Below are positions 1 through 14,035 of a stretch of 64,000 nt of DNA, piece by piece (the first letter of the stretch is position 1; each line of letters starts with the position of its first letter). A model generated the notes under the pieces. It was not told the origin of the DNA. It worked only from the letters and a program-made list of their open reading frames with translations, and ran no database searches. Made by a program: the position numbers and the translations under genes. This stretch comes from Myxococcota bacterium (GTDB lineage: Bacteria; Myxococcota_A; Polyangia; Nannocystales; Nannocystaceae). Location of the stretch: positions 64,001 to 128,000 of the forward strand of contig JBCCHT010000032.1 of NCBI GenBank assembly GCA_039028615.1. Direction: 5' to 3'.

Positions 1-986
1 ACACGAGGGTTTGTGTCGTAGAGGTGGTCGCGTCGTTTCGTCGTCGCGGAGCGTTGCCGAAAGGTGCTCGACGAACGCTTCACGCTTCGGTTTTCAGGCC
101 ACCTTCGTGACCACGACGCAAGTGCTCAGCGAGTCGCCACCCGGGGTTCATGGGGGCAACTTCGGGCAGCGTTCGTGTCCCCTATCCTGAACCAAAGCAG
201 CCGTTGAGGGATGTAAGCGCCACCACCGGGGGCGAGTCTGGGAGGCGGGTCTTCCCTTACTCGGACGTCCTGTTCCGGGAAACATGTCGCCACGAATTGT
301 CGGGTACGGGACTTTTTGCCTCGGGGTATCGAGACCACACCCGAGCGACGAAATTTGTCGCTCTGTCGGCGACCTCGTCGCGAGGGAATCGAGTGCGAAC
401 ACGGGGTCGCACTCGTCGATCGAAACCGTCGTCGATGCGCAAACCGGGTTCCGTTTCCGGCGCTCATGACACGCACTGGATTCGAGTGGAGCATTCGTCG
501 ACGTGTCGAGGTTCGTGCACGACGATCGAGCATTAGCTTTGTGAGCAACGAAGCGGCGCTCGCCTGCATCGACACCGACGATGCGTTGGGTCTGACAGGA
601 TTGTGAACGCAGAGCGCTCGTTCGCGATCACGACGGTGTCGATCGACGACCGCGAGTTCGTGATCGTGCTCGCCTCGCGAGGTCGGAGGCCCCTTCGAAC
701 CCCCTCCAATCGGCCACGAAACACCCGCTTTGCTCAAGTTGCCGAAGATCGAGAGCGCTCGTTCGTTCGCACCTGCGTGCGCCCTGCTCTCGGAGTTTGG
801 CAAAACGCGAAGAAACTTCGTTTCGTCTCCGACACCGACCGCCTTCCCAGATCAGGACCAGGCCCCCCGATGTTCGGATTTGTAGGGCCGACTCGGACGG
901 TCAGTCGAAAGTCGGCCACGGTAGGGCAGCTTACATCTCCTGAACTGCCGCTTGGGCCAACGTTGGTGCCGACGAAACGTGGCCCA

Positions 987-3536
987 ATGACCTACCGCAA
1001 AAAGCTCTTTCCTGACTACCGACTTCCGGCACCCGCCGGCCTCTCCATGTTGTTTGTCCTCGCGTGCAGCACCGGCTGCCCCAGCGACGACATCCCCACC
1101 GTGACGTCCGGCGACGACACCACGACGACCGACGCCGCGACGACCACCGGCATTACTACCCTCCCCACTCAGAACACCACCGACGTTGCGACGACCGACG
1201 TAGCAACCGGTGGCATGGACACTACGACCGGTGGTGTCGACACCGAGGGCGAAGACACCACCGAAGGCGCGGACGAGTCCTCTTCCGGCGGTGACACCTG
1301 CGGCGACGGTGTCCTCGACGACGGCGAAGACTGCGACGGCGACGACCTCGGCGGTGCGGCCTGTACTGACCAGGGCTTCGTCGGCGGCGACCTTGCCTGT
1401 AACGACGACTGTACCTTCGACACCTCTGCCTGCACCGAGGCCATGTGTGGTGACGGCATCATCGAGGGTGACGAGGACTGCGAAGGCATGGACCTCGGCG
1501 GCGAGGACTGCCTCAGCCAAGGTATGGACGGCGGCATGCTCGGCTGTACGGCCGACTGCGAGTTCGACCTCATGGGCTGCTTCATGATCAGCTGCGGGGA
1601 CGACACGATTCAGCCCCCCGAGGTGTGTGACGGCACCGACCTCGGCGGCGCGGACTGTGTCTCCGAGGGCTTCGACGGCGGCATGCTCGGGTGCGACCCC
1701 ATGGGCATGTGCATGGCCTTCGACACCAGCGGCTGCTTCGTCTGTGGCGATGACACCGTGGGTGGCCCCGAGACCTGTGACGGCACCGACCTCAACGGTC
1801 AGGACTGCGTCAGCCAGGGCTTCGACGAGGGCACGCTGGCCTGTAACGCCGACTGCGGTGGCTACGACACCTCCGGTTGCGCGACCTGTGGCGACGATGC
1901 CATCGGCGGCACCGAGACCTGCGACGGTACCGACCTCGGCGGTCAGACCTGCGTCGGCCTCGGCTTCGGCGGCGGCACGCTGGCCTGTAACGCGGACTGC
2001 GGCACCTTCGACACGTCGGGCTGCACGATGGACGTCTGCGGCGACGGTGCGGTCACTGGCCCCGAGGTCTGTGACGGTGCGGACGTCGGCGGGGCGACCT
2101 GCGTCGGCGAGGGCTTCGACGACGGCGTCATCGCTTGTAACGCGACCTGCGACGGGCTCGACACTTCGGGCTGCTTCTCCTGTGGCGACGGCGTCGTCGG
2201 CGGAGCCGAGGAGTGCGACGGTGCCGACCTTGCGGGGGCCGATTGCGCTTCGCAGGGCTTCGGCGGAGGCGGCACGCTCGCCTGCGCGGCCGACTGTACC
2301 TTCGACACCGCGATGTGCATCCCGGGCGGTACCAGCACCACGGTCTGCTCGACGCCGGGTACCCCGGTTGGTCCCGACGCTGGCTCGGTCAACACCGACA
2401 CCATTGTCGTGCCCGCGGGCGGCGACTTCATCACCGACGTCAACGTGTTCGTCGACGCCAACCACACGTGGGTCGGCGACCTCGAGATCTCGGTCACTCA
2501 GGTCGAGAACAACGTGCCGGCTCTCATCATGGAGAACCCGTGCGGAAACCAGGACGACATCTTCGCCACGTTCGATCAGGATCTGGGCGCCGCGCCGGCC
2601 TGCGCTGGCGTGCCGGCCATCTCCGGTGACATCCTGCCCGATCCGGGCTCCCTCGATGTCTTCACCGGTATCCCCGACGGCGATACCACCTGGCAGCTCG
2701 ACATCCTCGACGAGGTTGGCGGCGACGGCGGCACGCTCAACGAGTGGTGTGTCACCATCGAGTACGGCCCCGATCCCACCGCGTGTGGCGACGGCGTTCT
2801 CACCTTCGGTGAGCAGTGCGAAGGTGCCGACCTCCAGGGCAACGACTGCGTCTCGCAGGGCTTCCCCGCTGGCGGCACGCTGGCCTGTGACGCGGTGACC
2901 TGTGGCTTCGACACTTCCGCGTGTGATGCGTCGGCCGGTGTCTGTGGCAACGGCATCCTCGAGAACGACGGCGTGACCTCCTTCGAGGATTGCGACGGCA
3001 ACGAAGGCATCGCGGGCAACAACTGCGAGGGCTTGGGCTTCGCGGGCGGCTCGCTCGACTGTGGCTTCCCGGCTTGTGGCTTCGACACCAGCGGCTGCTC
3101 CGACACGGTCATCGCTGCCTGTAACAACGGCCTGGGGCTCACCATCGACGGCGACCTGCCGCCGGTGGAGAACGTCATCAACCTCGCCGATGCCGGCAAC
3201 GTGGGCGACATCGACGTCTTCGTCGACGCCAACCACGCTTGGGTCGGTGACCTGGACATCACCCTCGTCAACGACACCACGGGCACCTCCGTCGACTTGT
3301 TCTTCGACCAGTGCACCCTGCAGGACGACGTCTGGGCGTTCTTCAACGACGAGGGCAACGGCCCGGCGGACTGCGTCGAGCCGTTCGCGCTCGAGGGCAA
3401 CGTCACTCCCGACAACCCGCTGTCGGCCTTCGATGGTGGTGCCATCGCGGGCGACTGGCGACTCGTGGTCGCGGATGACGCTGGTCCGGATGACGGCGTG
3501 CTCAACGGCTGGTGTGTCTACATCACGCCCGAGTGA
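987..3536 (+). CDS. Cys-rich repeat surface lipoprotein with two proprotein-convertase P-domain-like modules
   Basis: ATG at 987 (MTYRKK..); lipobox-like VLAC; Thr/Asp linker; 9 repeats CGDG..E.CDG.DL.G..C...GF.GG.L.C...C.FDTS.C; two 'VFVDANH.WVGDL.I' P-domain-like modules; no protease catalytic domain seen. Confidence 0.85.
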   Translation: MTYRKKLFPDYRLPAPAGLSMLFVLACSTGCPSDDIPTVTSGDDTTTTDAATTTGITTLPTQNTTDVATTDVATGGMDTTTGGVDTEGEDTTEGADESSSGGDTCGDGVLDDGEDCDGDDLGGAACTDQGFVGGDLACNDDCTFDTSACTEAMCGDGIIEGDEDCEGMDLGGEDCLSQGMDGGMLGCTADCEFDLMGCFMISCGDDTIQPPEVCDGTDLGGADCVSEGFDGGMLGCDPMGMCMAFDTSGCFVCGDDTVGGPETCDGTDLNGQDCVSQGFDEGTLACNADCGGYDTSGCATCGDDAIGGTETCDGTDLGGQTCVGLGFGGGTLACNADCGTFDTSGCTMDVCGDGAVTGPEVCDGADVGGATCVGEGFDDGVIACNATCDGLDTSGCFSCGDGVVGGAEECDGADLAGADCASQGFGGGGTLACAADCTFDTAMCIPGGTSTTVCSTPGTPVGPDAGSVNTDTIVVPAGGDFITDVNVFVDANHTWVGDLEISVTQVENNVPALIMENPCGNQDDIFATFDQDLGAAPACAGVPAISGDILPDPGSLDVFTGIPDGDTTWQLDILDEVGGDGGTLNEWCVTIEYGPDPTACGDGVLTFGEQCEGADLQGNDCVSQGFPAGGTLACDAVTCGFDTSACDASAGVCGNGILENDGVTSFEDCDGNEGIAGNNCEGLGFAGGSLDCGFPACGFDTSGCSDTVIAACNNGLGLTIDGDLPPVENVINLADAGNVGDIDVFVDANHAWVGDLDITLVNDTTGTSVDLFFDQCTLQDDVWAFFNDEGNGPADCVEPFALEGNVTPDNPLSAFDGGAIAGDWRLVVADDAGPDDGVLNGWCVYITPE

Positions 3537-7790: not shown

Positions 7791-10433
7791 CTACGGGAAC
7801 TGGGCCGTGTAGCGCTGGAGTCGAATGTTGCGGTCGGTGAACCCGACGTCGCCTTCGCTCCACACCCCGACGATCTCGTCCGCCCCGCGGATGGCCACGT
7901 CGGGCTCCTCCTGCAGACCGAAGACGGTGGGGTTGACGAGGAACTCGGTGTTGAAGGCCACACCCGCGTCGTCGTAGCGCTGGGCGAAGACCCCGGTGAG
8001 CACGCCGTCGTCGGCCGTCTGCCAGGCGATGACGAAGTCGCCGTCGGCGTTCACGGCCGCGGTCGGGTTGTTCTGGGCGCCTGCGGTGGTGGTGTTGACC
8101 CCGAACTCGTTGCCGAGCGGGACGCCCACCGCGTTGTAGCGACGGGCGAAGATCCCGGTGTTGCTGCCGTCCTGATCGTCGCTCGACCAGGTGACCACGT
8201 ACTCGCCGCCCGCGTTCATCCCGATGGCCGGGCCCTGCTGATCGAGGGTGTTGAACTGGTTGACCTGCTCTTCGACGTCGATGGGGACGCCGCCGGAGGT
8301 GAAGCGACGCATGAACACGCCGACGCCGTCGCCGTCCTGGTCACCGCCCGACTGCCACACCACGGTGAACTGGCCGCTGTCGGCGAGCTCGACCACGGGG
8401 AGGTTTTGGTTGTCGGAGGTCACCGAGTTGACCGTCTGCTCGCTGCCCGTGGGGACGCCCGCCGCGGAGAACTGGCGGCACACGATGTCGACGGTGGCTG
8501 GCTGCTCCTCCCAGCACACGACGAACTGACCGCCCGAGCCCATCGCGATGTCGGGCCGGCGTTGCTCGTTGTCCGGGGACTCGTTGACGACGATCTGGCT
8601 GCCGACGGGCGCGCCCCCGGTGTTGAAGCGCTGGGCGTAGATCCCGTTGCCGTCCGCGTCGGGGCCCTGCCAGGCGACCACGAACCCGGTGTCCTGCGCA
8701 TCGATGGCGGGGAAGGCCTGGTTGCCCGCGGTGGTCGCGTTGACGAGCACCTCGCCCGTGAGCAGCACGCCCGCCGCATCGTAGACGCGGAGGTAGACGC
8801 CCGCTCCGTCGCCGTCTTGTGGTGGATCGTTGACGGGGAAGCTCGCCCAGGTGGCGACCATATAGAGGCCGCTGGGCGGCGTGGCCACGGCCGGCTGCAC
8901 CTGGAAGTCGGGCAGCGTGGAGTTGACGAGGTACTCCGTGCCGACGGGGCAGGGCTGCGAGCACGGGCCCGCGCAGTCGATGCCGAGCTCGGTCCCGTTT
9001 TGTACGTCGTCTTCGCAGGTCGGAGCCTGGCAGACCCCGAGCACGCAGACGCCCTCGGTGCAGTCATTGCCCGTCAGGCAGTTCTCTCCGGGGACGCAGG
9101 TGGCTCCGCAGATGCCACCGCAATCGAGGTCGGTCTCGTCGCCGTTCTCCACGCCGTCGTCGCAGACCGGGGCATCGCATGTGCCTCCTGCACCGCAGAC
9201 GCCTTCGATGCAATCGCCACCGAGGTTGCAGTTCTCCCCGAACTCGCAGGTCGCACCGCACACGCCACCGCAGTCGAGGTCGGACTCGTCCCCGTTGGTG
9301 ACGCCGTCGCTGCAGTCGGGGGCGGAGCACTGGCCGAACTCGCAGACCGCCTCGACGCAATCGTTGGAGGAGTTGCAGTCCTGCCCCGGGTTGCAGGTGG
9401 CCCCGCAGACGCCACCGCAGTCGAGGTCGGACTCGTCGCCGTTCTCGACCCCGTCGTCGCAGAGCGGGCCGAGGCACATGCCCGCGTCGCAGACTCCGCT
9501 GCCGCAGTCGGTTCCGATGTCGCAGCTGCCACCGTCGGGGCAGGTGAAGCAGTCGGGACCGCCGCAGTCGACGTCGGTCTCGTCGCCGTTGAGGACCATG
9601 TCGATGCACGAGCCGGCGACGCAGGTTCCACCGTCGCAGACCCCCTGGGCGCAGTCGCTGCCGTCGGTGCAGGAGCTACCGTTGGGGCACACGTCGCACG
9701 AGCCACCGCAGTCGATGTCGGTCTCGTCGCCGTTGAGGGTCGTGTCGTCGCAGGCCGCCGAAGCGCAGAGCCCATCGGGGCCGCAGACCTGCGTGTCGCA
9801 GTCGGCTTCGGAGTCGCAGTTCTGGCCCGGCCCGCAGTTGGGACAGTCGGGCCCGCCGCAATCGACGTCGGACTCGAGGGTGTCCTGCATCTCGTTTTCG
9901 CAGGACGAGACCTGGCACTCGCCGTCGAGGCAGAACTCGCCTTCTTTGCAGTGGCCATCGACGCGGCAGCCCACCTGCCCGCACGCGTTGGGGCACGAGC
10001 CGCCGCAGTCGATGTCGTCTTCGTCTCCGTTTTGAAGTCCGTCGTAGCAGGTCGGTGTCTGGCAGAACCCACCGCTGCAGATCATCGTGTCGCAATCTTC
10101 GTTGGCACCGCACTGCCCACCGGGTCCGCACGGATCACAAGCGCCACCGCAATCGACGTCGGACTCGTCTTCGTCGAGCATTCCGTTTTCGCACGACGAC
10201 ACCTCGGCACCCGTCGAAGAGTCGGCGCCGCTGGTACTACTTCCACCTCCGGCGGTTCCACTGGACGCGCCTCCATCGAGACTCCCAATGCCCATCCCAC
10301 CATCGGCTGCAACGCCGCCATCATCTCCGCACGACAGCGTCGCCAAGGTAACCAGAAGTGGCGAATATCGGATTAGGTGGGCTCGTTTCACGTTGGTTAG
10401 GCCTGTCCAAGAATCAGGATTACGCACGATCAA
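7791..10433 (-). CDS. Lipoprotein with Cys-rich stalk and C-terminal 7-repeat beta-propeller
   Basis: Lipobox-like TLSC (alternative GTG start at 10391); about 8.5 repeats C.DG..NGDE.D.DCGG.C; seven VN.....Q..P.(V/I)A...G..VV.W repeats at ~7794-8942. Confidence 0.85.
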   Translation of the reverse strand: MIVRNPDSWTGLTNVKRAHLIRYSPLLVTLATLSCGDDGGVAADGGMGIGSLDGGASSGTAGGGSSTSGADSSTGAEVSSCENGMLDEDESDVDCGGACDPCGPGGQCGANEDCDTMICSGGFCQTPTCYDGLQNGDEDDIDCGGSCPNACGQVGCRVDGHCKEGEFCLDGECQVSSCENEMQDTLESDVDCGGPDCPNCGPGQNCDSEADCDTQVCGPDGLCASAACDDTTLNGDETDIDCGGSCDVCPNGSSCTDGSDCAQGVCDGGTCVAGSCIDMVLNGDETDVDCGGPDCFTCPDGGSCDIGTDCGSGVCDAGMCLGPLCDDGVENGDESDLDCGGVCGATCNPGQDCNSSNDCVEAVCEFGQCSAPDCSDGVTNGDESDLDCGGVCGATCEFGENCNLGGDCIEGVCGAGGTCDAPVCDDGVENGDETDLDCGGICGATCVPGENCLTGNDCTEGVCVLGVCQAPTCEDDVQNGTELGIDCAGPCSQPCPVGTEYLVNSTLPDFQVQPAVATPPSGLYMVATWASFPVNDPPQDGDGAGVYLRVYDAAGVLLTGEVLVNATTAGNQAFPAIDAQDTGFVVAWQGPDADGNGIYAQRFNTGGAPVGSQIVVNESPDNEQRRPDIAMGSGGQFVVCWEEQPATVDIVCRQFSAAGVPTGSEQTVNSVTSDNQNLPVVELADSGQFTVVWQSGGDQDGDGVGVFMRRFTSGGVPIDVEEQVNQFNTLDQQGPAIGMNAGGEYVVTWSSDDQDGSNTGIFARRYNAVGVPLGNEFGVNTTTAGAQNNPTAAVNADGDFVIAWQTADDGVLTGVFAQRYDDAGVAFNTEFLVNPTVFGLQEEPDVAIRGADEIVGVWSEGDVGFTDRNIRLQRYTAQFP

Positions 10434-10693
10434 TCACCATTTCAGGGCACTTTTCAGCGGAACGCTCGAGGAGGTTTGTTCTCGAACAGCGCGTTGCTCG
10501 CTTTGGATCTTCAGTTCGTTAGTCTTCAGCTCGAACCAGTTCTCCGATTGCTAGCCCCTCCGCAGGAACCTTGCTCGTCAACGATATCAGCTATCAAACG
10601 TGAGTGCTTTACGGATGGAAGATAGTTGGCATTTCGGGTATGAGGAAAACTGGAATCTTTATGACGGCTGTAAGACGGAAGGAAGGCCGCACC

Positions 10694-12964
10694 ATGAGCC
10701 GCTACGAGCTTGGTCTACTAGGGACCGTACTCATCGCCGCATCGGGGGGTGCGTGCGGTGGAGACGATACCGTTGCAATGTCTGCCTCGGCGGGAATGGG
10801 ATCAGGGGGTTCCCTGACGACGACGGCAACTGCAGCAACGGCAGCGAGCACCAGCGGAGGTGTTGGCGAAGCAACCGGAGACGACGGTGTCGGCTCGGGC
10901 AATGGCAATGAGGGTAGTGACAATGGCACTCCCGATGGCACCGGTAACGACACCACGGGTGGCACGTCCATGGGAGTCTCTGCATCGGCCACCGATGGCA
11001 CGGCAGACGACCAGGGCGATGGCATGGACACCGGATCCGACGATGGTGGACCGGGGCCCGTTCCGGGTCGCTTCCCCGGTGTCGAAGTAGGTTTGTGTGC
11101 TCCTCCGGGAACAGTGCGTTATTGCTACACAGGCTCCCCGCTCACGTACAACGTGGGCGAGTGTACTCCCGGAACCCAACAGTGTTTGGCGCTCGACCTC
11201 GATGTGGGTGAGTGGGGTGAGTGCGAAGGTGAGACATTGCCCGAGATGGAGGTCTGCGATGGCCTCGACAACGACTGCAATGGTGAGATCGACGATGGCC
11301 TCGGCACCACGATGTGCGGAATTGGGCCATGTGAACACGAGGTCGCCAATTGTGTGAATGGGGAGGAGCAGGTCTGCGATCCGCTCGATGGCGCGACGCC
11401 CGAGATCTGCGACCTTCAAGACAACGACTGTGACGGCGACATCGACGAAGGGCTCGGAGACGAGACCATCACCTGCGGTGTCGGTCAGTGTGAGCACGAG
11501 GTCTCCGCGTGCGAGGGCGGTATCGTGCCTCCCTGCGATCCCTTCGAAGGGGCATCGCCCGAGACCTGCGACGACGTCGACAACGACTGCGATGGAGCGA
11601 CCGACGAGGGGTTGCCCGACATCACGTGTGGGTGTGGCGTCTGCGACCACACCATCCCTTCGTGCATCAACGGGTTCCCTCAGGTCTGCGATCCCTTCGA
11701 GGGGGCGGGCCCCGAGGTCTGCGACGGGCTCGACAACGACTGCGACTGCATCGAGGACGAGGACCAGGGCAACTGGACCTGCGGCGAGAACGAGTGCGAG
11801 GTCACCGTGCCGCAGTGCATCGCGGGCGTGCCTCAGCCCGAGGACACCTGCGCGCCGATTCCGGGCGGCGACGAGATCTGCGGCGACGGCATCGACAACA
11901 ACTGCGACGGTGTCGCGCCGCCGTGCGCCGAGGGCTTCCTCGTCGGCACCGACACCGCGACCCGCCCGGTCGACGTGATCTGGGTGGTCGACTCCTCGGG
12001 CTCGATGGCGGCCGAGATGGCGACCGTCGAGGCGGAGATCAACTCGTTCGCCAACGACCTGGCGGCCTCGGGTTCGTCGACGCAGCTCCACCTCATCGCC
12101 GACCGTGGCCTCGAGAACTTCGAGATCTGCGTCGCGCCGCCGCTGGGCGGAGCCAACTGCACGGACAACCCGGGGGCGGGCTTTTGGCACTACGACACCA
12201 ACGGCGACGTCAACGGCAACGAGATGGTGCACTCGAGCAACGGCATCGGGCGGACCATGCAGCAGGCGTCCACGTGGATTCCGCGGCTGCAGCCCAACTC
12301 GTACATGGCGTTCATCTTCACCAGCGACGACAACGGGGACGACCCCGACTGGGAGATCGCCGACGGTGACCCCTCGGACGTCGACGACTGCGGTCCGGGC
12401 TTCATCTTCGACGGCACGGTCAACAACCTGTGCCGCTGGGTCGCCCCCGGCCCGCTCGACTACACCTCGCTCGCGTTCGACCACGCCGGCTACGGTGGCT
12501 TCGAGACGTTCATGAACAACTTCTTCCCGGGCACTACGCCCGAGGCGGACTGGGGCGTGTTCCCCATCATCGGCAACACCGGCACCACCGTGCTGTCGGG
12601 CGCCGACGACATGTACGAGTTCAACTCCTGCATCACCGGAGTCGAGGACGGCGAGGAGTACGTCAAGCTCGCACAGCTGACCAACACGCTGCCCTCGATG
12701 TTCTCGATCTGTGACGCACCTTGGGACCTCAGTGGGTTGGCCACCGACATCCTCAGCGGCGTGCCCAACGACCTGTACATCCTGGAAGGAGTCCCCGCTG
12801 GAAACTGCCTGATGATCGATCCCGCGACGATCACCGTGATCGTCAACGGTATCCCAATGCCGGCCGCCGACTGGACTTACGACGCGGCGAGTTGCACCCT
12901 TCAGATTCTCAACAACGTCCCCGTCATCGGTGACAATGTCGTCATCGTCTACGAGAACTTTTAA
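10694..12964 (+). CDS. Lipoprotein with E.CDG.DNDC.G repeats and vWA domain
   Basis: GGAAGG RBS before ATG 10694; lipobox GGAC; 5 E.CD..DN.C repeats; RPVDVIWVVDSSGSM MIDAS motif; C-terminal beta-rich segment. Confidence 0.85.
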   Translation: MSRYELGLLGTVLIAASGGACGGDDTVAMSASAGMGSGGSLTTTATAATAASTSGGVGEATGDDGVGSGNGNEGSDNGTPDGTGNDTTGGTSMGVSASATDGTADDQGDGMDTGSDDGGPGPVPGRFPGVEVGLCAPPGTVRYCYTGSPLTYNVGECTPGTQQCLALDLDVGEWGECEGETLPEMEVCDGLDNDCNGEIDDGLGTTMCGIGPCEHEVANCVNGEEQVCDPLDGATPEICDLQDNDCDGDIDEGLGDETITCGVGQCEHEVSACEGGIVPPCDPFEGASPETCDDVDNDCDGATDEGLPDITCGCGVCDHTIPSCINGFPQVCDPFEGAGPEVCDGLDNDCDCIEDEDQGNWTCGENECEVTVPQCIAGVPQPEDTCAPIPGGDEICGDGIDNNCDGVAPPCAEGFLVGTDTATRPVDVIWVVDSSGSMAAEMATVEAEINSFANDLAASGSSTQLHLIADRGLENFEICVAPPLGGANCTDNPGAGFWHYDTNGDVNGNEMVHSSNGIGRTMQQASTWIPRLQPNSYMAFIFTSDDNGDDPDWEIADGDPSDVDDCGPGFIFDGTVNNLCRWVAPGPLDYTSLAFDHAGYGGFETFMNNFFPGTTPEADWGVFPIIGNTGTTVLSGADDMYEFNSCITGVEDGEEYVKLAQLTNTLPSMFSICDAPWDLSGLATDILSGVPNDLYILEGVPAGNCLMIDPATITVIVNGIPMPAADWTYDAASCTLQILNNVPVIGDNVVIVYENF

Positions 12965-14035
12965 ATGAGTATCAGCGTTCAGACCCCACGTTCCTTTGGA
13001 TTCGTCTTGGCTGTCGTTGCTGCGGCGGGCTTCATGGCCTGCGGAGGAGGAGGCCAATCCGATGATGGCTCCTCGGATGGAGGCATCGATCTCACGGCAG
13101 GCACGGGCGGCTCCACCACCGGAGAACCCGACGACAGCCTCGACGATGGTGCCGACGACACGACCGGCGGGACCGAAGAAGGCCCGACCTTCCGCTGCGA
13201 CAGCGTCGACTTCGTTTTCGTCGTCGACAACTCGCCGAGCATGCTCGACGAACAGCAGTTCTTGGTGCAGGGCGTGCCCGGCTTCATCAGCGCGATGCAG
13301 AACGCATTGCCCAGCGTCGAGAGCCTCCGCGTCGGGGTGATCGACACCGACAGCTATCCCGGCTTGGGCACGCTCGAGGCTCCGCTCGATGGGTGCGACC
13401 CCGAGGCCGTCGACGACTGCAACGTCTGCGACTACCAGCTCGGGGCCTTCCTCACCAAGCCCGAGAGCGCGGTCGACTCGTCGCAGACCTGCGACTTCTC
13501 GACCGGGGCCAGCTACATGGACGGCACGGCCGAGACCTTCGCCAACGAGTTCGGCTGCGCCGCCATCGTGGGCGCGGTGGGCAATCCCATCGAGCAGCAA
13601 GCGGGCGCTCTGGTGGCCGCGGTCTCCGACGACCTGACGGACGCCGGGGCGTGCAATGAAGGCTTCGTTCGCGACGAGGCTCTGCTCGTGTTCCTCGTCA
13701 TCAGCGACGAAGAGGACAACTACGCGTCGCCGCCCGATCCACAGGGCGGTAGCTTCGGCGAGCCTGCCGACTGGTACGACGCACTGGTGGCCGCCAAGAA
13801 CGGGCGCGAGGCGAACGTCGTCGGTCTCGGCCTGCTCGGCGGGTCTCCCCGCTTCCCCGACTGCTCCGACTTGTCGCAGGGCGTCGACGGGGCCGAGCAG
13901 TCGTCGCGCTTGGTCGACTTCGTGGAGCGCTTCCCCACCAACTTCGTGGGCAGCGTGTGCAGCGATGGCTACGGCGGCTTCTTCCAGGAGGCGCTCGACC
14001 GCGTCGCCGAGGGCTGCGCCAACTTCATCCCGTAG
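12965..14035 (+). CDS. vWA-like domain lipoprotein
   Basis: Starts directly after upstream TAA; lipobox FMAC; VDFVFVVDNSPSM (DxSxS) and ISDEED. Confidence 0.82.
   Translation: MSISVQTPRSFGFVLAVVAAAGFMACGGGGQSDDGSSDGGIDLTAGTGGSTTGEPDDSLDDGADDTTGGTEEGPTFRCDSVDFVFVVDNSPSMLDEQQFLVQGVPGFISAMQNALPSVESLRVGVIDTDSYPGLGTLEAPLDGCDPEAVDDCNVCDYQLGAFLTKPESAVDSSQTCDFSTGASYMDGTAETFANEFGCAAIVGAVGNPIEQQAGALVAAVSDDLTDAGACNEGFVRDEALLVFLVISDEEDNYASPPDPQGGSFGEPADWYDALVAAKNGREANVVGLGLLGGSPRFPDCSDLSQGVDGAEQSSRLVDFVERFPTNFVGSVCSDGYGGFFQEALDRVAEGCANFIP

Follow-up and report, generated by a model that had tools for sequence, protein, structure and literature searches.

We found a real, conserved and as yet unnamed three-gene module in a 64-kb stretch of DNA from a Myxococcota bacterium (the window: the whole stretch analysed, 64,000 nucleotides of contig JBCCHT010000032.1), in which a vWA (von Willebrand factor type A) lipoprotein of the myxobacterial adhesin kind is accompanied by a gene for a dedicated propeller partner. 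Gene A, on the minus strand, is divergent from gene B, and gene C lies directly 3' of B. The lipobox pattern was present in A, B and C, and from this pattern, seen at 17 of 17 loci among those listed, the three proteins are predicted to be lipid-anchored. Our tentative best reading is that the three proteins make up a single metal-dependent module for surface recognition, with the heads of A and B side by side on stalks of fixed length and with C as an accessory. The observations in its support are the gene order, the co-occurrence of the genes, the joint duplication of A and B, the fixed stalk lengths and the intact residues of the MIDAS (metal ion-dependent adhesion site).

Among 73 genomes of the family, the B head was found in 18, covering five of the 17 genera. 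An orthologue of C occurred in the same 18 genomes (up to 34 candidates scored per genome), as did the A head, of which a weak paralogue with 33% identity was also present in G048. The relatives that carry names are Nannocystaceae. The first-pass annotation, which proposed an integrin-like unit from the letters of the window, had made synteny elsewhere a condition of its proposal, and this synteny was recovered. At 20 other genome loci (four named records excluded as duplicates), A was divergent from B at 15, which are all the loci (15/15) whose contig reaches A, and the remaining five contigs end before A; C was located 3' of B at 17 and was absent at three second copies. Eight metagenome loci contained nine B copies, with A upstream of six, a contig end at two and no A at one, and with C 3' of seven. 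The flanks change, no neighbour gene being common to more than 9 of 29 loci, and the gene order is kept across five genera. In the window's genome there are 53 vWA open reading frames (ORFs) and five propeller matches, and only B, C and B', the B gene of a second copy, lie within 8 kb of a propeller; this, together with the order kept in five genera, makes the A-B-C arrangement more than chance. Since the 18 genomes are kin, they represent one conserved unit and not 18 independent events.

The trees of A and B from 19 paired loci agree, and their identities correlate at 0.89. The second copies of two genomes cluster in both trees with support 100/99-100, and A and B were duplicated as a pair. 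A second divergent pair, A'/B', exists in the window's genome (L001:6774-11878, G000:C4) without C, and its heads are 58% and 70% identical. It adjoins a Cys-rich protein with a C-terminal membrane tail that resembles a MYXO-CTERM signal; locus L048 has the same neighbour and keeps C. In G068, a genome 63% complete, A is found in two frames within the propeller (L037:3426-6468), by a frameshift or an assembly error.

The fixed stalk lengths are the strongest indirect sign of a fixed geometry. In 19 of 19 paired loci, the A stalk measured 413-427 amino acids (aa) and contained 68 Cys (67 at one locus), and the B stalk measured 282-284 aa and contained 32 or 34 Cys; the heads at these loci are only 43-79% identical. 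Where the same 8-Cys repeat carries another head, it contained 23-103 Cys in 24 of 25 control proteins (head identity 55-100%); the control set was the best 20 of 93 matched regions, with one protein without the repeat and two possibly cut. A control for the B stalk was rejected as unclean because the control stalks mix repeat types. The A repeats are position-specific, with 837 of 1224 best matches falling at the same position. Two further genes, L105 (G000:C28:148080-151067) and G000:C24:99531-101084, combine the 8-Cys stalk of A with another head; matches to them occurred in 50 of the 73 family genomes, the number of repeats being about 3-13.

The ORF of gene A (7791..10433, minus strand) encodes 880 aa, composed of the lipobox-like Cys35, a low-complexity linker, the stalk (aa 81-495) and a seven-repeat head (aa 500-880) which closes the protein. 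The stalk comprises eight full repeats of 48-50 aa with eight Cys each and a 4-Cys half repeat; the head repeats are 51-61 aa long, and of the blades, 1 and 4 contain QDGDG and 5 contains QDGS. These are the 8-Cys stalk and the seven blade-like repeats with QDGDG loops that the first-pass annotation had described, and both were confirmed. Its further supposition that the seven repeats form a closed propeller agrees with the predicted model, which is all-beta (alignment of 15 sequences; mean per-residue confidence, pLDDT, 87.4; predicted template-modelling score, pTM, 0.91). Through structural comparison, the best match was the seven-bladed propeller of CylK, with Z 41.7, a root-mean-square deviation (rmsd) of 2.6 and 11% identity over 355 of 384 residues, and the next matches were tied (YncE Z 29.3, WD40 28.9, integrin alpha-L 28.8). 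Foldseek agreed on CylK and also returned uronate lyases and glycoside hydrolases; the lyase matches (Z 26.6-26.9) were level with unrelated propellers. The A head is predicted to be a CylK-type seven-bladed propeller. Fourteen blades were counted in 88 of 108 non-orthologous homologues of the head (the top matches being biased to many repeats), which fits a unit of seven blades. The CylK-type blade is very common, occurring in 3461 proteins among 8000 candidates scored, and no Pfam family describes it.

Nine residues were invariant or nearly so in the A orthologues and rare in 1555 generic blades: six close to the start of strand A (R129, R130, L182, N292, E346, D349) and three close to that of strand C (T263, T317, R372). 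Standard propeller topology would place them on one face and in the channel. This basic patch would be complementary to an acidic patch on B; it might just as well be catalytic or a binding site for an anionic ligand.

No family in Pfam or NCBIfam was matched above cut-off by the trio except PF11617 on B. NF053835 (PDIAV lipoprotein) was rejected for A (27 bits against a cut-off of 90). PDB-chain sequence searches returned nothing meaningful for the A head, the B head, C or either stalk, and the ESM Atlas returned generic vWA or hypothetical clusters only.

Gene B (ORF 10604..12964) encodes Cys51, a linker, a Cys module, five DNDCDG-type units, the FLVGTD strand, the vWA domain and a beta-rich end of 63 aa. 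The Cys/Asp stalk and the MIDAS-bearing vWA at 11990 seen in the first pass both held, and the five Cys/Asp units matched PF11617 with 56.3 bits (cut-off 27). The vWA starts with RPVDVIW at 11963 and has DSSGS at 11990; MIDAS residues D19, S21, S23 and D131 are invariant in 21 of 21 B heads. The model of the B head (pLDDT 78.6, alignment of 21 sequences) consisted of the vWA followed by a small beta domain, and the predicted vWA fold is firm. The beta-rich segment that had been noticed after the vWA was borne out; the strand noticed before it is invariant in sequence (L2, V3, G4, D6) but was modelled at low confidence, with pLDDT below 50 for residues 1-3. An insertion of the vWA into a hybrid-like domain is plausible on this model. 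A long insertion after D131 contains the invariant G134-D135-D136, C152, C166-R167 and Y176-T177-S178; in integrin beta, the region after D251 touches the propeller.

The likeness of B to integrin heads was recovered in part. Integrin beta headpieces did rank at the top of the Foldseek list, but weakly (E 3e-5, TM 0.39) and tied with the pilus adhesin SpaC. By VIA-align, alpha-I and other plain vWA domains scored Z 9.9-10.5 and integrin beta3 scored 8.7; residues 1-342 of B align end to end with residues 100-400 of integrin beta3 (219 residues, Z 8.7, rmsd 4.2). In a search of 401 genomes of the phylum, full-length B heads were found in the family only (3 genomes of the sample), and 75 other genomes matched the first 130-180 positions only. 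Through a profile search of 1.84 billion proteins with the B head, seven matches were below 1e-30, two of which cover nearly the whole head. No adjacent pair of distant B-like and A-like genes was seen by eye among the phylum-sample matches listed, with 14 and 201 further matches beyond the listing, and a wider pairing may exist.

Gene C encodes a vWA lipoprotein with a lipobox Cys26 and no stalk. It was correctly described in the first pass as abutting B without a gap: the B stop TAA (12962-12964) is followed directly by the C ATG at 12965, and DNSPS is at 13226. VWA_2 was matched weakly by nine of nine aligned members of the C family. In integrin beta, the MIDAS is described as D119-S121-S123, E220 and D251, and the adjacent site (ADMIDAS) as D126/D127 (PMC3792891). 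The residues of C, compared by sequence, have the pattern of D119-S121-S123, D126-D127, E220 and D251, with D14-S16-S18, D21-E22, E136 and D174 respectively; B, in the same kind of check, has Ser100 and one Glu (E27). The Glu at the likely third MIDAS position of C was kept in 23 of 23 close paralogues, so it is a trait of the family and not of the cassette. The 53 related vWA ORFs of the window's genome (G000) form a large unnamed family. Three stalkless lipoproteins of the genome, L107 (G000:C23:174074-175294), C38:96160-97521 and C5:229124-230293, have a B-related vWA followed by a C-terminal beta domain containing GWYYD, and distant relatives of these are widespread in the phylum.

In the module that we favour, each chain would be held by a lipid on its N-terminal Cys and exposed at the surface, the three being predicted outer-membrane lipoproteins. 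Disulfides, and probably Ca2+ too, would stiffen both stalks, and the two heads likely meet on their length-matched stalks, as a putative A-B heterodimer. The Arg/Glu/Asp patch of A at the starts of strands A and C would face the B head, whose insertion after the last MIDAS Asp carries the invariant acidic G-D-D. The MIDAS metal of B may grip a carboxylate of a ligand outside the cell (a polymer of the matrix, a neighbouring cell or prey), with A giving the specificity; C, recruited from the large vWA lipoprotein family, may add a second metal site near the membrane and would be dispensable for some copies. Such a trio would work like an integrin headpiece without kinship to it, and with no membrane span for signalling. 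A stronger form, in which A and B are a true propeller-vWA heterodimer, a convergent integrin headpiece made from a CylK-type propeller and a myxobacterial vWA, lipid-anchored upside down on legs of matched length, with C as a detachable third metal-binding subunit, is possible but doubtful.

Several observations weigh against a joint module. The matched distribution is among kin genomes and may reflect one gain and few losses, and the agreement of the A and B trees with the correlation of 0.89 is expected from shared descent alone. In 12 of the 17 genera no cassette was found, and none was found in G049, a genome of the same genus that is 95% complete; the function is therefore not a core one. 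The second B at L046:11081-13459 lacks an A upstream, and three second copies are without C. Lipoproteins with a vWA and a C-terminal beta domain occur elsewhere in the window's genome with no propeller nearby. B matches integrin beta only weakly, with plain vWA and alpha-I domains scoring as high or higher, and the strand needed for a vWA insertion has low model confidence. A fixed stalk could also serve a fixed reach instead of a partner. The extra B of L046 lies about 1.9 kb downstream of a full trio and is convergent with a different propeller-like gene.

The stand-alone B of L046 and the three losses of C agree also with the first rival, that the proteins are co-regulated yet physically independent adhesins for the same surface or polymer, with stalk length giving the height above the cell coat. 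Stalks and heads are freely shuffled modules in the window's genome, and most of the 53 vWA ORFs are without a propeller neighbour. This is at odds with the duplication of A and B as a pair and with the roughly fourfold variation of the same stalk repeat in other lipoproteins of the same genomes, by which reach alone does not usually fix the length; we consider it somewhat unlikely.

A second rival gives A an enzymatic or lectin function on an anionic polymer, with the Arg/Arg/Glu/Asp/Arg cluster as its active or binding site and with B and C holding or presenting the substrate through their metal sites. R129, R130, N292, E346, D349 and R372 are invariant at positions variable in generic blades, and both the top fold match, CylK, and the lyases and glycoside hydrolases of the Foldseek list are enzymes. 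The N-terminal beta-roll domain, described as required for the catalysis of CylK (PMC8916777), is however absent from A, the lyases match no better than unrelated propellers, and the flanks contain no conserved genes for sugars or biosynthesis, which leaves this reading improbable.

Still less probable is a gliding role, in which the trio would take the place of the adhesins CglB and CglD in this lineage and link the Agl-Glt motor to the substratum. The genome has no match to either adhesin at cut-off (36/200 and 48/400 bits), a GltC-like gene is present (142 bits, under cut-off), and the layout of B resembles CglD as presented in a preprint (bioRxiv 2023.10.19.562135); against this, 55 of the 73 genomes of the family gave no match to the cassette, no glt genes are linked to it, and the best CglB- and CglD-like matches are genes other than B and C. 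True homology of A and B with integrin alpha and beta, whether by inheritance or by transfer, is hardly credible: a seven-bladed propeller beside a vWA with a flanking beta domain, and integrin beta at the top of the B Foldseek list, are set against 19 of 19 A heads without cage, FG..GAP or integrin Ca loop, no PF01839 at E<=1, an integrin alpha Z of 28.8, level with WD40 and YncE and 13 lower than that of CylK, and no PDB-chain sequence match, and by the motif tests the homology is largely refuted.

The features of the locus are collected in Table 1. The starts of A (GTG 10391) and B (ATG 10694) were judged by signal-peptide length and are likely. In the intergenic region, no sigma-70 consensus was found and no promoter or terminator scored above chance; the GATTA..TTTCA motif is a candidate promoter or operator. 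The window also contains, at 603-3536 on the plus strand, a Cys-rich lipoprotein-like ORF whose repeat is of another kind and which has proprotein-convertase P domains (PF01483); this ORF is absent from the other cassette loci.

Table 1. Positions of the three genes and their parts in the window
Feature	Position	Strand	Basis
Gene A: predicted lipoprotein, 8-Cys repeat stalk and 7-bladed propeller	7791..10391	-	ORF and model; start inferred from signal length
A lipobox-like Cys35 (LATLSC)	10329..10331	-	equivalent Cys in 17/17 loci among those listed
A stalk: 8.5 repeats of 48-50 aa, 68 Cys	8949..10193	-	sequence; without Pfam or PDB sequence match
A head: CylK-type 7-bladed beta-propeller; conserved R129, R130, N292, E346, D349, R372 (head numbering)	7794..8945	-	alignment and predicted fold
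Divergent intergenic region	10392..10693	.	role inferred
AT-rich GATTA..TTTCA motif, just upstream of the A start, in most loci	~10418-10445	intergenic	alignment
Gene B: predicted lipoprotein, PF11617-type stalk, vWA and beta domain	10694..12964	+	ORF from 10604; Cys at 10754
B stalk: one N-terminal Cys module and five DNDCDG-type units; 34 Cys, 283 aa	11084..11935	+	sequence, PF11617
FLVGTD, invariant strand ahead of B vWA; putative first strand of hybrid-like domain	11936..11953	+	alignment; model low-confidence
B vWA domain: MIDAS DSSGS at 11990; invariant H99 S100, D131 D132 G134 D135 D136	11963..12763	+	alignment, predicted fold
B C-terminal small beta domain	12773..12961	+	alignment, predicted fold
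Gene C: predicted lipoprotein (Cys26 at 13040), stalkless vWA; DNSPS at 13226; invariant D21 E22, E136, D174	12965..14035	+	sequence

Integrin-type propellers (PMC3192720) and beta-integrin-like vWA lipoproteins (CglD) are described separately in bacteria, and no dedicated propeller partner for a bacterial vWA chain is described in the literature compared. The literature search found no paper on the cassette; subscription papers and the supplement of the CglD preprint, whose homologue list may include the family, were outside its scope. The cassette is a small, concrete and testable candidate for a bacterial propeller-vWA pairing. Even without binding between the heads, its fixed stalks would reveal an unusual constraint of geometry, repeat lipoproteins otherwise being resized freely, in a myxobacterial family that has been little studied.

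Compared with known systems, the trio falls outside the integrin, CglB, CglD and CylK families. CylK (PDB 7ron) is the closest solved fold to the A head. Its Ca2+ sites are described as bridging blades, and another domain as capping the propeller's top face (PMC8916777). The hallmarks of CylK/BrtB are the catalytic Tyr473, Asp440 and Glu374 and the N-terminal Ca2+ beta-roll with Arg105. In place of the beta-roll, the N-terminal half of A consists of the lipobox, the linker and the 8-Cys repeats of its stalk, and the locus has no halogenase context. The pilus tip adhesins SpaC, RrgA, PitA, Mfa5 and PilY1 have a vWA flanked by Ig-like domains, and PilY1 combines a vWA and a propeller in one chain; these are pilus-borne single chains, in contrast to three separate predicted lipoproteins. 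The vWA force transducers of PMC12204202 are described as inner-membrane tethered, unlike the trio.

CglD of Myxococcus xanthus is reported to be a beta-integrin-like lipoprotein with CglB as its proposed partner (bioRxiv 10.1101/2023.10.19.562135), and CglB an alpha-I-like vWA lipoprotein (PMC9946355, PMC11761067). As described there, CglD is a lipoprotein with an acidic DxDxDG-type Cys-rich stalk, a beta-sandwich and a C-terminal MIDAS vWA, a layout that B resembles, but it has 1130 aa and B about 735, and the word "propeller" does not occur in the main text of the preprint. The CglD model NF033765 did not match B at E<=0.001, and its best score in the genome was 47.6 bits against a cut-off of 400, on neither B nor C; the DNDCDG-type units of B match PF11617 and not the CglD model. 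C resembles CglB, which is described as having disulfides, as a short MIDAS vWA lipoprotein, but there are no GltABHK genes near C, and the likely third MIDAS residue of C is a Glu. The CglB model NF033757 matched neither B nor C, with a best score in the genome of 36.2 bits (cut-off 200) on another gene. The assignment of B and C as CglB or CglD was rejected on these family models.

The likeness to the integrin alpha/beta headpiece (PDB 9der, 9lt3, 5e6r; PMC3192720, PMC3792891) is one of architecture only: a propeller chain and a chain with a vWA and a beta domain, long legs, and a MIDAS. A shares with integrin alpha a predicted seven-bladed propeller, and B shares with integrin beta a vWA with MIDAS DxSxS and the distal Asp. 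The FG-GAP/cage motif, as defined in PMC3192720, where integrin-type propellers are also described in bacteria with partner not known, was present in 0 of 19 A heads by pattern (PF01839, no Pfam match at E<=1). The integrin-type Ca2+ loop, which joins strands 1 and 2 in blades 4-7, was likewise present in 0 of 19, with short turns in its place, and the QDG loops of A sit between strands 2 and 3 instead. A has no Ig-like legs, C-terminal membrane span or tail and ends at blade 7, and B, ending at its beta domain, has no membrane span or cytoplasmic tail. Of the integrin-like alpha/beta interpretation of the first-pass annotation, the architecture, the synteny and the predicted propeller closure stood; the propeller is of another family (predicted CylK-type, not FG-GAP), the Cys-rich legs are on both chains with the 8-Cys stalk on the propeller chain and not the vWA chain, and the polarity is reversed, with the lipid anchor N-terminal, the heads C-terminal and no membrane span or tail. 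If the heads of A and B do bind each other, the design of the alpha/beta headpiece would have arisen at least twice from different propellers, which would bear on how integrins might have been assembled from pre-existing bacterial modules.

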